Positions 436 to 6,190 of a stretch of 64,000 nucleotides of DNA are shown here, piece by piece. Position 1 is the stretch's first letter, and each line of letters begins with the position of its first letter. Made by a program: the position numbers and the translations under genes. The notes under the pieces were generated by a model, which made no database searches, was not told where the DNA came from, and saw only the letters and a list, made by a program, of their open reading frames with translations. Source of the stretch: Escherichia coli (lineage in GTDB: Bacteria; Pseudomonadota; Gammaproteobacteria; Enterobacterales; Enterobacteriaceae); assembly GCF_003018235.1 (NCBI RefSeq), contig NZ_CP027437.1; one strand, given 5' to 3'.

Positions 436-508
436 TGCAAGCTACTCCATATGTATAAAATGAAAATTCACATAGTTCTAACTAGCTAATATATAACAAC
501 CGATTTCT

Positions 509-3500
509 CTATTTTATGATTGGCGGTACAATTGGAGGTGTCACTGGTGGTAAGTATACTTGACCAAGTTTAGCCCCAGCAGAACGGTTAAGAGAATAAT
601 GATCCAAATAATAATTTTTTGAATCCAGCATCCAATCCCTGACAGGTTTAGACTTCGGCCCCAAAAATCTACCAGTATTATTCCACCATGTAACGGCATC
701 TGTCTTATGAGACATATCTGCTTCACTTAATGGATGCCAGACACCTTCAGAATCTTTAAACTCCATCCGGGAACCTGTCCCTCTAATTTTTCCATCATTT
801 CTCATCCGAGCAATAACCTCACGGCCTGTTCGGCTATTCTTCCCTGGGGTTCTTCCTAAGAAATCACAACGTTTTGACAGCCCTAATGGGTCAATCCACC
901 CCAGCGGATTAGGCGCATAAGCATACAGGTTCAGCCCGCCCGCCAGCCCTATCGGGTCCGTTACCATGAACCGCCCGACATCCGGATCATAGTACCTGTG
1001 CAGATTGTAATGCAGCCCCGTTTCCCTGTCGAGGTACTGTCCCTGGTAGCGCAGGTTCTGCTCCACCCCGCCGTGGTCCTTCTCCTGTATCGTGTTACCC
1101 CAGACCTGATACCCCGTCTCCCACACGATTTTCCCGTCGCTGTCCGTCATCTCTTCCGGCGCGCCGTTCACATCCGTGTGAAAATACAGTATCCGGTTCG
1201 GGCCCTCTTTACCCACCTTATCCACCCGCGCCAGCGGTTCATAACTCCCCGGGTCGCTGTAGATATACAGGCTGCTTATTCCCTCCGGCCTGCTCTCCTG
1301 CGCCAGCCGCATTCCGTCCCATAAAAATGTCGTCCGGTTGTACGGTTTACCGTCAGGGCTGATGTGCTGTTTTTCCGTCCGCCTCCCCAGCGCATCGTAC
1401 ACATACCGGTACGTTCCCCGCGCTGTCGTCACTTCCACCATCCGGTGTTCCGCATCATAACGGTAACTCTGCGTGCCGCTCCGGCCCTCCTTTTCCACCG
1501 CACGGCCAAATTCGTCGTAACGGTAGTGCACACCACGGTAAGACATCAGCCGGTTGAACGGCACCACGCTGTTTTCTGCCGTGGCCCTTTCCCCCGCGCG
1601 CCGCGCCAGCAGGTTTCCCGCCGCGTCGTACTCCCAGCTCGCCAGATACCCCTCATCCTCCGAGCGGCACGCCGTGATGCGCCCCGTGGGGTCGTAGAAG
1701 TAATCCGTTTCCCCCCGCCGGCTGTGCCGCGTCTTCAGCAGTTCATCCTCGCCGCTGTAGCTGTACTGCCGGTCCGTGAACGTCTCCGGTACCACCCCGC
1801 GCATCCCGCTGTATGTCTCCCTGCGCTTCAGCCGCCCGGCGGGGTCATAAAGCTGCCGCGTGCTCAGTCGCCCCTGACTTCTGAGCACTTCCCGGTGCAG
1901 GGCGTCACGTGTGAACTCGCTGATGACCTCCCGGTCCAGATTTATCTGCTGGAGATGGCCGCTGCCGTAGTACAGATGACGCTGCGTTCTGCCGTCCGGA
2001 AAGGAGGTGGCTGTCCGGTTGCTGAGTTCATCGTACTGATGGGTCAGGACGCCCTGCGCCGTCTCCTCAGTCAGCATCCGCCCCAGTCTGTCGTAACTGA
2101 AGCGGATAATCTCCGGTGCGTCCATTTCCCCGGCATCCGACCGTCGGCGGCGGATTTCCAGTAGCTGGTCTGCCGCATCATGGACGTATTCCGTACGGCT
2201 ATCGGCTGTCTCCTTTGCCGTGAGCCGGCCCGCCGCATCACGTGCCAGCCGGTGGCGGATTTCACCGCCCCGGTCCCCTGTGAACACCACTTCCGTGACC
2301 GCGTTCAGCACGTTGTAACGGTACGTCTGGCGGCAGCCGTCCGGATTTATCTGCTCCGCCAGACGGTCCAGCACATCATGGCGGAACCGGTAGTTTTCTC
2401 CGTTCTCGTTCGTGAGCGTGACCAGACGCCCGTAAGCATCGTACCCGAACGCCGTCCTGCGCCCCGTCGCGTCTGTCCGGCTGCGCACCCGGCCCTGCCC
2501 GTCCCGCTGCCAGCGCGTTATCCTCCCCATCGGGCTGGTGTACTTCACGAGCCTGCCCGCCGCGTCCGACTGGTAATTCACCGTGCGGCCGTCCGCCAGT
2601 ATCACCTCCGTCAGGTGGCCGCTGTCGTCATACCCGTAGCGCGTGCTGTGGCTCTGCGCGTCTGTCATCCGTATCAGCCGCGTGCGTTCGTCGTAGAACC
2701 AGGCCGTCTGCGAGCCGGAACAGTCCGTGTGCCGCATGAGCTGTCCGTCTTCGTTCCACTGAAGGTATTTATTCCCCCCGCGCGCATCCGTTATCTGCAC
2801 CACCTGACCGTGGCGGTCATACTGATACCGGGTGTTCTGCTGCAGCGGGTCGGTCACCGCAAGAAGATTGCCGCGTTCATCGTACTCACAGCACCAGCTG
2901 TTCCCCGCCGCGTCCACCTCCGTTTCCGGCTGGTGCCACACCGGGTGCCACTGTGTCTGTGCCACCCGCCCCAGCGGGTCGTGCGTCTCCGTGATATGCC
3001 CCTGCCGGTCATACACATAGCGCCATTTGCCGCCCTGCGCATCGGTCATTCCCAGTAACAGCCGTTCTTCGTCGCTCCAGCGGAACGTCGTCACCTGCCC
3101 GGCTTCGTCCTGGTACGCCGTCACCTGGTTCTGCGCGTCCCACTGATGATAACGCGTGCGCCCCAGCCCGTCCGTCACGCACAGCCTGCGTGCCGCGAGG
3201 CTCCACGCCAGCCGGTACTGTTCACCGCTGTCCGTGTGGTGCCCCGTCACCCGCCACGCTGCGTCATCCGGGCCTTCATACCAGCCCCACTGGTAATAAT
3301 ACCCTTCGCCGCCCGGCTGGCGGTGCAGGGTCATGCAGTGGTTTTCGTCGTAAGCAAACTCGCGCAGCAGGTGCCCCGTGCTGTCGTACACGCCGTTCAG
3401 GTCGCCGGCCTCGTCATAGCGGTAACGACGCAGCAGTAAAGGAGCCGTCTCAGGGAAATGCTGATAAATCTGTGTCACCCGCCGGGGATGCGCCGCCAGT

Positions 3501-5188
3501 TCATAATGCAGACGGATGCACGGACGCTGCTGTTCACCGCTGATTTGCGTGATGCGCCCCAGCTCGTCGTAGTACAGATTCAGACAGTTGCTGTTGCGGT
3601 CGCCCAGCATTTTCAGCCGCTGGTGCTGCGGGTGATGCGGGTCGGCTTCAAACAGAAAAAACTGCCCGTCATCGCTGCTGATAAGCCAGTGCCCCTGCTC
3701 ACCCCGCCGTACTGCCAGTCCTTCGCCGGGGCTGTAAAACCCGCTCCCCGGCAGCACAGCCTCCATATCCAGGCGTCGTCCCATGCCCGACACAAAGGTC
3801 ATACAGTTTTCGTCAGCAGTACCCGGCGTGCGCACGAGGCTGACTTCATACATCACGCTCCAGCCCTGCCCGAACATCCCTTCCGTGCGGTCGTCACGAC
3901 TGCTGTACACGCGCTGCCAGTCCAGCGGAAAGTGGCCCGGCAGACTGAAGTCAAAATCATCGTCATCGGCCAGATATTTGGCTCCGGTGGCGGCATTGAC
4001 CGGATGCGGAAGGGCACTGATGGCCTTCTGCGTCATCACCCCCATCCCGACACTGGCAGCAAAACAGGCGATTTTAGAAAGCATTTTGCCCGGGCGAAGA
4101 AACATCAGCGCCACGGTTGCCACCAGGGTTATCTGCGACCTGCCGCTTCTGATATCCCTGACCACCAGTAACGGACCGCCAATGCGGACATCCGGTGACA
4201 CAAACGCCCCGTTCCCCGGCTCATTCACCACCCTGGCCTCGCAGGTGCAGCGTGCCCCGCTGCGTGCCGCCGGCTGGCTGTTGATACGCACATCCCGCGC
4301 GCCTTCCGCGATATATTCCGCTGCGGGCGGTTCATCATCGCCTTTGAACAGATTACTGATGCTGCCAATAACCGCATTCACTCCCTGAAAGGCGGTTTCC
4401 AGCATACCGCCCGGACTCAGCAGGTTAAGGGCCGTTCCCAGGGGGTCATCCAGAAAGGCGGCTTTTTTTTGTGCGAGAAACTGCGTCAGTGAGGAGGGAT
4501 GTTTATGGCAGTCGATTTTATCGTCAGGGGTCGGGGTGGAGCCCGGGGCCGCACTGGCCACGGTGGGCTGCCATAGTTCCGACACAAAATGTGTCACGCC
4601 ATCCACCATTTCAGAACGCCCTTCTTCCGTACTGAGCTGGTCATGCAGCGCCCGGGACATCAGCACAGGCCCTGTCACCGGGTTAACCGCCAGGGCTATG
4701 GCCCCCGCCATTTCCAGATATTCCCCGGCCACATCCAGGAACGTTCTGGCGTCCTCCTGACGCTGCGCTTCTTCCTGTTCCGCCTTCGCCTGCGCCTCCT
4801 GCGCCTCAATGTCCTGCCGCGATGCCGCAGTCGCCGCGGCCCGCGCGGCAGGTTTGCTGTTGATCCATGTGTCGCCAGAGCCGGTGAGGATGTAACCTTC
4901 AATCTGAGGCGGGAAAAGCATATTTGCGAGGTCTGAACAGACTTCGCTGACCTTTTCTGTCACGCCGGTGTACACCATCGCCACACCCGCCACAAAACCG
5001 GTCAGCACGACGGCCGTGCACCCCATAGTGATCCCCGCTGACGTCGCCAGTAACGAGGTTGTGCCGACAATGAGGGCATCAATAACGACATTTGCGGCCA
5101 CCTCCAGCACCGCCCCCAGCACATCTGCCATAAACGACGTATGCAGCAGGGCATCACCCTGCCTTGCCGCCCAGAATGCCTCTTCCAT
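509..5188 (-). CDS. Rhs-family polymorphic toxin (1559 aa): prePAAR/PAAR N-terminus, YD-repeat shell, DPLGL boundary, variable 122-aa C-terminal tip
   Basis: ATG at 5188. N-terminus carries AARQGDALLH (prePAAR consensus AARxxDxxxH), hydrophobic stretches at residues ~23-75, and PAAR tetrapeptides at residues 113-116 and 306-309. Many YD repeats (YRYDEAGDL, YQYDRHGQ, YGYDDSGHL). Core ends PNPLGWIDPLGL; the last 122 aa (nt 512-877) are AT-rich. Confidence 0.9.
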   Translation of the reverse strand: MEEAFWAARQGDALLHTSFMADVLGAVLEVAANVVIDALIVGTTSLLATSAGITMGCTAVVLTGFVAGVAMVYTGVTEKVSEVCSDLANMLFPPQIEGYILTGSGDTWINSKPAARAAATAASRQDIEAQEAQAKAEQEEAQRQEDARTFLDVAGEYLEMAGAIALAVNPVTGPVLMSRALHDQLSTEEGRSEMVDGVTHFVSELWQPTVASAAPGSTPTPDDKIDCHKHPSSLTQFLAQKKAAFLDDPLGTALNLLSPGGMLETAFQGVNAVIGSISNLFKGDDEPPAAEYIAEGARDVRINSQPAARSGARCTCEARVVNEPGNGAFVSPDVRIGGPLLVVRDIRSGRSQITLVATVALMFLRPGKMLSKIACFAASVGMGVMTQKAISALPHPVNAATGAKYLADDDDFDFSLPGHFPLDWQRVYSSRDDRTEGMFGQGWSVMYEVSLVRTPGTADENCMTFVSGMGRRLDMEAVLPGSGFYSPGEGLAVRRGEQGHWLISSDDGQFFLFEADPHHPQHQRLKMLGDRNSNCLNLYYDELGRITQISGEQQRPCIRLHYELAAHPRRVTQIYQHFPETAPLLLRRYRYDEAGDLNGVYDSTGHLLREFAYDENHCMTLHRQPGGEGYYYQWGWYEGPDDAAWRVTGHHTDSGEQYRLAWSLAARRLCVTDGLGRTRYHQWDAQNQVTAYQDEAGQVTTFRWSDEERLLLGMTDAQGGKWRYVYDRQGHITETHDPLGRVAQTQWHPVWHQPETEVDAAGNSWCCEYDERGNLLAVTDPLQQNTRYQYDRHGQVVQITDARGGNKYLQWNEDGQLMRHTDCSGSQTAWFYDERTRLIRMTDAQSHSTRYGYDDSGHLTEVILADGRTVNYQSDAAGRLVKYTSPMGRITRWQRDGQGRVRSRTDATGRRTAFGYDAYGRLVTLTNENGENYRFRHDVLDRLAEQINPDGCRQTYRYNVLNAVTEVVFTGDRGGEIRHRLARDAAGRLTAKETADSRTEYVHDAADQLLEIRRRRSDAGEMDAPEIIRFSYDRLGRMLTEETAQGVLTHQYDELSNRTATSFPDGRTQRHLYYGSGHLQQINLDREVISEFTRDALHREVLRSQGRLSTRQLYDPAGRLKRRETYSGMRGVVPETFTDRQYSYSGEDELLKTRHSRRGETDYFYDPTGRITACRSEDEGYLASWEYDAAGNLLARRAGERATAENSVVPFNRLMSYRGVHYRYDEFGRAVEKEGRSGTQSYRYDAEHRMVEVTTARGTYRYVYDALGRRTEKQHISPDGKPYNRTTFLWDGMRLAQESRPEGISSLYIYSDPGSYEPLARVDKVGKEGPNRILYFHTDVNGAPEEMTDSDGKIVWETGYQVWGNTIQEKDHGGVEQNLRYQGQYLDRETGLHYNLHRYYDPDVGRFMVTDPIGLAGGLNLYAYAPNPLGWIDPLGLSKRCDFLGRTPGKNSRTGREVIARMRNDGKIRGTGSRMEFKDSEGVWHPLSEADMSHKTDAVTWWNNTGRFLGPKSKPVRDWMLDSKNYYLDHYSLNRSAGAKLGQVYLPPVTPPIVPPIIK

Positions 5189-5206: not shown

Positions 5207-5436
5207 TTAATTCGTCCCGGCTTCCTGCCGCATCCTGAAGCGCAGATTCTTTTTAATTTCAGCCCAGCGCGTCATATCTGCCGGGGTCAGCGGTGTGGTT
5301 CTGGCGTAGGTGAAGGCCATCATGACCCGCTCACCCGGCAATACAAATGCCACCTGACACTGGTACACCTGCTCGTTACCCCGGAGAAACTGGCTCTGTA
5401 TTTGCAAACCGCCTCATTGAGATAATATTCCGTCAT
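5207..5436 (-). pseudogene. Disrupted short ORFs immediately upstream of rhs; possible remnant of an effector-associated chaperone gene
   Basis: A 66-aa ORF (5207-5407, TTG start) ends 19 bp before the rhs start. An ATG at 5436 with an upstream AGGA opens a different frame that stops at 5320. No intact ORF of chaperone size. Assignment is positional inference only. Confidence 0.2.
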
Positions 5437-6190
5437 AATAGAAGTCGTCCTTTTTAATAAATGAATTATTTATTGACAGGTTCTGTTTTTTAATCATGAA
5501 TGTAATGTCTATCACCGCTTTACAGCACTCTTTATCTTTCAAGCGGTAATCACTAATAACATTAAGCAATTACCCATATTTACAATGACCGGAACTGATA
5601 TGCCGTTATGTATTTAACAATCCCAACATATTCACCATACCAATAAAATCACGAGTAACAAACACGCTACCGCCTCCATATAAAAAATGGACAGCTTATA
5701 AAATTGCATCTTGCATAGAAAGGGCTGAGATATCGAGTGTATTTTAATTATCAACTATAAATCTTGAATATTTTCATTAACAGAAACACATCTTATCCCA
5801 TTAGATATGTTAACAATCAATTATTCTTAACATATCACTAAAGTATATATTACTCTCTTTACTATCTGTTTTTATTGCGGTAGCGATATTAATAGCAAAA
5901 TTCGGAATTTATTTAGATGCTGGAATAAGAAAAAATGATGACGGCTTTCTTACCTTACCCTGAAGTTTCAGGAAAGTGTGTAAGGAAGGATGCAACCTAA
6001 CTGGAGATTTCTGAGGATCTAGTTGCTTAGAGCGACAATGAAGGTGAACGCATCCAGAGTAGTCCTATGAAAGGATACTATTGAAAATTGATGCTAAAAC
6101 AGTGATTAAATGAACAACACCATGGAACCCGTTGATTCAAAACGCCTAAACCAGCCCCCTGATACGAGGCTGGCTTAAACGCGCAGGCAA

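Follow-up and report, generated by a model that had tools for sequence, protein, structure and literature searches.

Which toxin does the AT-rich tip of an Rhs gene at the ybfA-kdp locus of Escherichia coli encode, and what protects the producer from it? The gene lies in a 64,000-nucleotide (nt) stretch of contig NZ_CP027437.1 (RefSeq assembly GCF_003018235.1), referred to below as the window, where it occupies 509-5188 on the minus strand as an uninterrupted open reading frame (ORF) of 1559 amino acids (aa) with its stop codon at 509-511. The exact protein is present in NCBI as WP_106906169.1. An initial annotation, made from the sequence alone, had described its end as an AT-rich swapped toxin tip of unassigned family, with a nuclease as one hypothesis for its activity. 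The tip is exactly 122 aa long (aa 1438-1559; 512-877, minus strand), and its composition departs from that of the Rhs core as described (GC 0.421 versus 0.618; GC at third codon positions 0.30 versus 0.74); the corresponding values for the ORF downstream of it are 0.357 and 0.26. Our analysis makes it likely that the tip is a His-Me finger nuclease of the GH-E family (PF14410, YqcG-C-terminal type) that was acquired together with its immunity gene by recombination at the DPLGL motif.

Relationship of the tip to GH-E nucleases

The relatives of the tip carried the family assignment. A phmmer search with the tip returned 49 proteins (E = 1e-20 to 1e-71, 48-92% identity), several of which were named 'GH-E family nuclease' or 'HNH/ENDO VII family nuclease' and two of which had a precomputed PF14410 match. 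When 30 tip homologues were scanned singly, PF14410 was the only recurrent family, reaching E ≤ 1e-3 in seven and E ≤ 0.1 in 17. A Bacillus protein (P0067) that is 62% identical to the tip (BLASTP, E = 2e-49) matched PF14410 with E = 1.9e-5 over DMAH...NRSEG, its residues 105-154, corresponding to positions 16-66 of the 68 in the model. Mapped through the BLASTP alignment with P0067, the PF14410-equivalent core of the tip extends from EADMSH to NRSAG (tip residues 52-101; 575-724, minus strand) and contains D54, H57, D60, N66, N88, D92 and N97-R98-S99.

The family around the tip is large. A trimmed profile of 24 sequences matched 258 clusters, and an exhaustive HMMER profile scan of 1.84 billion representatives found 627 proteins at E ≤ 1e-3, 522 at 1e-10 and 244 at 1e-30. 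In almost all of the 150 representatives listed, the domain was located at the extreme C-terminus of host proteins of 100-2600 aa; a name look-up among the representatives of about 530 aa found none named YqcG. A Foldseek search of AFDB50 with the AlphaFold model of the tip gave 80 matches at E ≤ 1e-3. They included Rhs fragments from Proteus, Salmonella and Escherichia marmotae (73-79% identity) and, at E = 1e-11 to 1e-16, Bacillus proteins labelled 'Toxin YqcG C-terminal domain-containing protein' (~62% identity) and 'GH-E family nuclease'; LXG, Rhs, PT-HINT, DUF4150/DUF4280 and filamentous-haemagglutinin toxins were also among them. The best AFDB match bore an IdrD label, and we rejected a link to IdrD because this match is a 144-aa orphan Rhs fragment. 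The studied IdrD-CT of Proteus strain BB2000 reportedly belongs to a different family.

Direct searches with the tip weigh against the assignment. The tip alone had no PF14410 match at E ≤ 10, Pfam and NCBIfam assigned it to no family, and a PDB sequence search found nothing either with the single sequence or with the profile. PADLOC gave no match to the tip. Because the tip has no direct PF14410 match and its relatives are positive, its GH-E membership rests on transitive homology. The Pfam scan of the last 122 residues proposed by the initial annotation thus drew a blank for the tip and succeeded only among its homologues; likewise, the proposed structure prediction and fold search recovered GH-E/YqcG-type toxins in AFDB50 and nothing significant in the PDB. 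PF14410 misses the tip though it detects proteins 62% identical to it, and only seven of the 30 clade members score E ≤ 1e-3: the curated GH-E model has low sensitivity for the tip's subclade, which is a mildly new point. Surveys will therefore probably record Rhs tips of this subclade as 'unknown CT'.

The GH-E clade of HNH/EndoVII toxin nucleases was defined in 2011-2012 by Zhang, Iyer and Aravind (PMC3113570, PMC3482391). Judging by the homology to the GH-E/YqcG-C-terminal clade, through PF14410-positive P0067 and the profile matches, the tip is not of an unassigned family; in substance it corresponds to an already described type of Rhs C-terminal toxin. A GH-E toxin-immunity cassette on an Rhs protein is, by its sequence relationships, a known kind of polymorphic toxin and no new toxin family. 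The nuclease activity suggested at the outset fits this homology.

The cassette exchange and the predicted immunity gene

The Rhs core ends in the DPxGL-type motif PNPLGWIDPLGL (aa 1426-1437; 878-913, minus strand), which is the recombination boundary and the predicted autoproteolytic boundary. The initial annotation had found this motif and placed it at about 878-892, a range that covers only its last five codons. The flanking ybfA-kdpFAB DNA is 95-99% identical to that of essentially all complete E. coli genomes. The Rhs core and its upstream region are 98.4-98.7% identical at the nt level over ~5.3 kb in 198 of 5426 RefSeq complete E. coli genomes, where they are likewise adjacent to ybfA, and the ybfA-locus Rhs alleles examined in this set carry other tips and other immunity genes (108 or 126 aa). 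In a three-way alignment with two other E. coli alleles, identity collapsed within a few bases of the DPLGL codons. Because DNA identity to other E. coli Rhs cores ends at DPLGL, the swap boundary is real, as is the swapped nature of the tip. This pattern is the classic signature of displacement of an Rhs C-terminal cassette by recombination.

When the tip and immunity DNA was used in megablast against the 5426 genomes, only the last ~120 nt of the Rhs core were matched, indicating that the tip-immunity cassette is absent from this set. The exact tip and immunity sequences were present on several other E. coli assemblies, and at least 23 E. coli contigs encode the exact 142-aa immunity protein. 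In E. coli CP177202, the exact pair forms an orphan module downstream of an EndoU-tipped ybfA-locus Rhs gene. The AT-rich toxin-plus-immunity cassette is a rare allele in E. coli, a second mildly new point.

The gene downstream of the tip, at 7-435 on the minus strand, is the predicted immunity gene. It encodes an all-helical, tetratricopeptide repeat (TPR)-like protein of 142 aa and is separated from the toxin gene by an AT-rich spacer of 73 nt (436-508, minus strand; GC 0.29). A GGAG lies 9 nt upstream of its ATG, and a terminator scan between the two genes found no terminator-like site. The protein had only weak Pfam TPR matches and no NCBIfam match, and its AlphaFold2 (AF2) model, with a predicted local distance difference test (pLDDT) score of 93.6, consists of seven helices.

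In each of the 10 lineages examined, the gene that immediately follows the tip homologue encodes a ~140-aa homologue of this protein. The first of these were Salmonella (two contexts), a Logan contig, Proteus, Bacillus and Prevotella. A profile was then built from eight downstream proteins. In four lineages that had not contributed to it, the ORF next after the toxin gene matched with E = 4e-18 to 2e-37; these were a PAAR-DUF4123 locus of Rhizobiaceae, a WXG100 locus of an actinobacterium, an Rhs array of Pseudomonas syringae, and Chryseobacterium. Two immunity proteins that belong to different E. coli Rhs tips served as negative controls and gave E = 0.45 and 1 against the same profile. In relatives, the identity of tip and immunity protein was 90% and 96%, 81% and 58-61%, and 65% and ~29%, respectively; by these sequence comparisons, toxin and immunity divergence go together. 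The linkage and the profile matches point to the 142-aa protein as the predicted cognate immunity protein of the tip.

A word-indexed search collected 109 clusters of 75-150 aa for the immunity family, named only 'hypothetical' or 'tetratricopeptide repeat protein', and no Pfam or NCBIfam model covers it. The 2012 catalogue lists Imm-SuFu and Imm-ank, and no TPR protein, for Tox-GH-E (PMC3482391). The TPR-like immunity family is conserved across phyla yet uncatalogued, which is the third mildly new point. The tip and its partner could even constitute a distinct, uncatalogued toxin-immunity pair within the GH-E superfamily that has co-evolved across at least four phyla (Pseudomonadota, Bacillota, Bacteroidota and Actinomycetota), a proposal to which we give slightly less than even credence. 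The toxin subclade may then be marked by an N-terminal G-x-T-P-G-K-x-S-x-T-G extension and a two-helix omega-loop. If this proposal is true, current profiles systematically miss the subclade, and separate models for its toxin and immunity proteins, as well as a first structure, would be worthwhile.

Several arrangements were seen around these genes in relatives. In lineages other than Enterobacteriaceae, two diverged paralogues of the TPR-like immunity gene usually stand in tandem, and an actinobacterial contig has one 286-aa fusion of two immunity copies, the fusion gene occurring twice in the locus (tandem or fused loci: L007 3560-4404, L008 3555-4425, L018 3061-3953, L020 3135-4010, L021 2884-3746 and L019 3018-3878). 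Orphan-module arrays with the GH-E cassette in Proteus mirabilis (L005/L006 1093-2459) and in a further locus (L008 5062-6248) also contain NucA/NucB-type DNase tips and DUF6707 proteins, a pairing proposed as toxin and immunity in a Salmonella survey (PMC11669294). In the CP177202 locus (L012 1-13615), each orphan Rhs module is separated from the next by SymE-family toxin genes of opposite orientation, and the same interleaving was observed in Salmonella (L001-L003) and in two other E. coli loci (L010/L011). Every E. coli copy (L012-L017; e.g. L015 4123-4479) has a conserved 118-aa ORF without a Pfam match some 600 nt past the immunity gene, before ybgA-phr. In our contig it would fall beyond window position 1; the window begins 6 nt after the immunity stop codon.

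Proposed delivery and substrate

The part of the Rhs protein that would deliver the tip (878-5188, minus strand) consists of a prePAAR-like motif, a split PAAR motif, DUF6531, YD repeats and the RHS-associated core. In NCBIfam the matches were to RHS_core, YD_repeat and Rhs_assc_core (aa 1360-1437), and in Pfam to DUF6531 (E = 1e-18) and the split PAAR_motif (aa 291-321, E = 2e-5). An AARxxDxxxH-like string, AARQGDALLH, is present at aa 7-16, where the prePAAR_I match was weak (E = 1.4). The PAAR motif, DUF6531 and this string are consistent with a PAAR-Rhs effector of a type VI secretion system (T6SS).

Rhs proteins in general undergo autoproteolytic cleavage at the DPxGL motif. By analogy, we propose that the Rhs shell encloses the tip, which would be released at the DPxGL boundary and delivered by a T6SS into neighbouring bacteria, and that the 142-aa TPR-like protein would bind the tip and so protect the producer and its kin. 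In the target cell the tip would hydrolyse nucleic acid, most probably chromosomal DNA, by one-metal-ion catalysis. In this analysis the basis of the proposal is homology, residue conservation, the cassette swap, the toxin-immunity linkage across phyla and, weakly, the fold class; enzymatic activity, substrate, residue roles, cleavage, delivery and neutralisation by binding are what we infer from it.

The neighbourhood of the gene speaks against delivery by this strain. The upstream DcrB-related/Eag-type chaperone gene is a remnant encoding only the C-terminal 66 aa (5207-5407, minus strand); the same remnant is annotated in RefSeq E. coli L010 and L011 as 'DcrB-related protein, incomplete, missing N-terminus'. 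The window showed neither vgrG nor T6SS genes beside the locus, and together with the truncated chaperone gene this leaves delivery by this strain unproven. If effectors of this kind need an Eag chaperone, all of the ~200 alleles at this locus lack a local one. Between the chaperone remnant and ybfA lies ~700 bp of very AT-rich DNA (window 5400-6100, GC 0.27-0.36).

It is unlikely, in our judgement, that the cassette is intact but undeployed in this strain, the locus persisting mainly as an immunity gene and a recombination reservoir. On this explanation, the Rhs protein could be neither loaded nor exported, since only a remnant is left of its chaperone gene (a pseudogene in the annotation of other E. 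coli) and there is no neighbouring VgrG gene. It would also fit the finding that the rest of the 64-kb window holds no further copy of the Rhs, toxin or immunity gene, and that the orphan module of CP177202, the only form in which that genome holds the pair, looks promoterless. However, the 1559-aa ORF is uninterrupted and the conservation of its core in the 198 genomes suggests selection; chaperone, VgrG and T6SS genes may moreover lie elsewhere in the genome, beyond the window.

The substrate was considered in the light of YqcG, the reference experimental member of PF14410 (PMC9990079). In Bacillus subtilis, YqcG causes growth arrest within minutes and elimination of the chromosome, leaving DNA-less cells (PMC4436073), and depletion of chromosomal DNA by YqcG was also found in an independent study (PMC8321402). 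Most of the tested T6SS-delivered His-Me finger toxins are DNases (PMC9990079). Weighing against DNA as the substrate, the YqcG C-terminal domain is listed as an RNase from its expression in E. coli (Holberger 2012, as mentioned in passages of PMC8321402 and PMC9990079). Zhang et al. described the GH-E active site as NucA-like (PMC3113570). With these precedents on either side, we favour, with reasonable confidence, a metal-dependent and sequence-nonspecific DNase.

A toxin of the same family and fold could act on RNA, or on DNA and RNA alike, and kill through RNA degradation. NucA-type and Serratia-type sugar-nonspecific enzymes cut both DNA and RNA, and the RNase record of the YqcG domain would agree with such an activity. 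The rapid loss of the chromosome in the native host of YqcG and the prevalence of DNases among related T6SS toxins argue in the opposite direction, and we regard action on RNA, alone or together with DNA, as unlikely, though it is the main alternative to a DNase. We know of no GH-E domain with a solved structure, and of no Rhs-borne GH-E toxin that has been biochemically tested.

Predicted fold and active site

Residue conservation was computed over 261 non-identical domains of the tip family. The H-K-T-D motif that the initial annotation had located in the tip lies at 698-709 (minus strand), as it had reported, and corresponds to aa 1494-1497. Its His (H1494, tip H57) was present in 261 of 261 domains and its Asp (D1497, tip D60) in 249 (95%); both residues singled out in the initial annotation are conserved. 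In tip numbering, the other highly conserved positions were D54 (99%), M55 (nearly 100%), W65 (100%), N66 (99%), N88 (98%), N97 (99%, 259/261), R98 (99%), S99 (97%) and G101 (100%). The N-terminal extension G-x-T-P-G-K-x-S-x-T-G is also conserved in the tip family.

In the AF2 model of the tip, a strand (residues 53-57) ends at H57, with D60 at the start of the helix that follows; helices 61-72 and 77-84 fill an omega-loop, strand 89-93 returns to pair, and the last helix begins after N97-R98-S99. In His-Me finger nucleases, the catalytic His, acting as the general base, is located at the C-terminus of strand 1 with an acidic residue just before it, an Asn lies in the omega-loop, and a metal-binding Asn or His occupies the first turn of the helix (PMC5714182). 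By this comparison, H1494 (H57), with which the D-M-S-H strand ends, would serve as the general base, and D1491 (D54) and N1534 (N97), the latter in the N-R-S turn before the last helix, are predicted to hold the metal. N1503 and N1525 (N66 and N88) are candidate loop-bracing residues, which together with D1497 (D60), a conserved helix cap beside the His, would brace the enlarged two-helix omega-loop. Counting against the firmness of these roles, they were assigned from sequence position and secondary structure only.

The structural neighbours of the tip model were phage GVE2 HNH, Cas9 chains (three of eleven), VcaM4I, caspase-activated DNase (CAD), Gme HNH, McrA, Vibrio endonuclease I, two retron HNH proteins and an Rhs2-CT endonuclease. 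The elaborate omega-loop of the model fits the presence of endonuclease I/Vvn and CAD in this list. Foldseek of the model against the PDB gave nothing significant, and a PDB sequence search found no solved structure for any member of the tip family. Because of these two results, the model evidence for an HNH/EndoVII (His-Me finger) fold is consistent but weak. A novel fold was rejected.

A further point against the assignment is that two GH-E signature residues are substituted in the tip, Gly by Ser and Glu by Asp, both common variants in the clade. The published conserved pattern is GH, E, N, E (Zhang 2012, PMC3482391). The residue before the invariant His (position 56) is Ala in 132, Gly in 70 and Ser in 55 of the 261 domains, and it is Ser in the tip. 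Position 92, in N-Y-x-L-x, is Glu in 119, Asp in 97 and Gln in 42, and the tip has Asp there. Directly after N-R-S, the tip has Ala, and Glu occupies this place in only 24 domains; the correspondence of these positions to the published pattern is inferred. Ser56 and Asp92 are probably why the Pfam model misses the tip. These two replacements, together with the blindness of the Pfam model, would also be expected if the tip were a degenerate, catalytically dead relative. We considered this explanation and rejected it as very improbable: Ser is found in a fifth and Asp in a third of the family, His, Asp54, Asn66, Asn88 and Asn97-Arg-Ser are intact, and the tip has kept a closely linked immunity gene that varies along with it and would be of use only against an active toxin.

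The suggestion in the initial annotation of an Ntox15/Tde-like DNase, T6SS-delivered toxins with H-x-x-D such as Tde1 whose family and fold differ from those of the tip, draws only on the presence of an H-x-x-D with both residues conserved in the tip family, and it is almost certainly wrong, as Ntox15 matched neither the tip (E ≤ 10) nor any of the 30 homologues (E ≤ 0.1) and the His lies at the end of a D-M-x-H strand typical of His-Me fingers. By our estimate, an HxxD tetrapeptide occurs by chance in about one of seven 122-aa sequences, but the conservation of its His and Asp in the tip family sets this one apart.

The Rhs protein ends in LPPVTPPIVPPIIK. The Pro-rich tail noted in the initial annotation is present as VTPPIVPPIIK (512-544, minus strand), a C-terminal extension found only in the E. 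coli copies and in one metagenomic relative (Logan contig L004); in the homologues from Salmonella, Proteus and all other sources, only 2-6 residues follow Y-L-P-P. Tandem Repeats Finder detected no array in it, and the three PP[VI]x units are a visual impression. The tail is a lineage-specific appendage and no family feature.

Relation to known toxins and significance

The tip is related to GH-E/Tox-GH-E (PF14410; group 14 of the His-Me classification of Jablonska et al. 2017) through its PF14410-positive relatives. It shares with this family its place as a C-terminal module of Rhs, LXG, PT-HINT, PAAR/DUF4150 and filamentous haemagglutinin toxins, and the D-x-x-H strand and N-R-S turn are conserved. 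The arrangement of a polymorphic-toxin C-terminal module followed by an immunity gene was found here as an Rhs core, DPLGL and a downstream gene conserved in ten lineages, and an association with Rhs and T6SS has already been noted for the GH-E family (PMC5714182). The tip differs from the norm of the family in having no reportable Pfam score, in the Gly-to-Ser and Glu-to-Asp changes and in its N-terminal extension. Its partner is TPR-like, in contrast to the Imm-SuFu and Imm-ank partners described for Tox-GH-E in 2012 and the YjbI-like pentapeptide neighbours described in 2017 (PMC5714182).

Among studied systems, the B. subtilis LXG toxin YqcG and its antitoxin YqcF share with the cassette the layout of a toxin with a downstream antitoxin. 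The likeness to YqcG rests on the Bacillus proteins labelled 'YqcG C-terminal domain' that are ~62% identical to the tip; delivery differs, being LXG/type VII secretion for YqcG and, as proposed here, Rhs/type VI for the tip. FA1443_1959 of Salmonella Albany, a PAAR-RhsA-GH-E protein of 1566 aa with the TPR immunity protein FA1443_1960 (PMC11669294, 2024), is alike by description in architecture, size (1566 versus 1559 aa), predicted toxin family and kind of immunity. It is located in the SPI-6 T6SS cluster, whereas the Rhs gene studied here lies at the E. coli ybfA-kdp locus without T6SS genes alongside; both toxins are bioinformatic predictions only. Salmonella orphan copies of the tip have 81% identity, and their immunity proteins 58-61%. 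The D-M-S-H of the tip parallels the D-R-G-H of NucA, Serratia nuclease and EndoG (Endonuclease_NS), which use a single metal ion and a His general base, as proposed for the tip. The tip is not a member of that group: it lacks their flanking units of three strands, is a much smaller domain and showed no detectable sequence match.

These findings on the tip cassette leave the current understanding of polymorphic toxins unchanged, and their value lies first in annotation. The only label of WP_106906169.1 and its relatives is 'RHS repeat-associated core domain-containing protein', and that of the immunity protein is 'hypothetical'; the present result gives the toxin a probable activity and candidate catalytic residues and pairs it with a cognate immunity gene. 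From E. coli to Bacillus, Prevotella and actinobacteria, the GH-E subclade is accompanied by a compact family of TPR-like immunity proteins. The small, soluble-looking toxin-immunity pair would be a convenient model for the DNase-versus-RNase question in this family.

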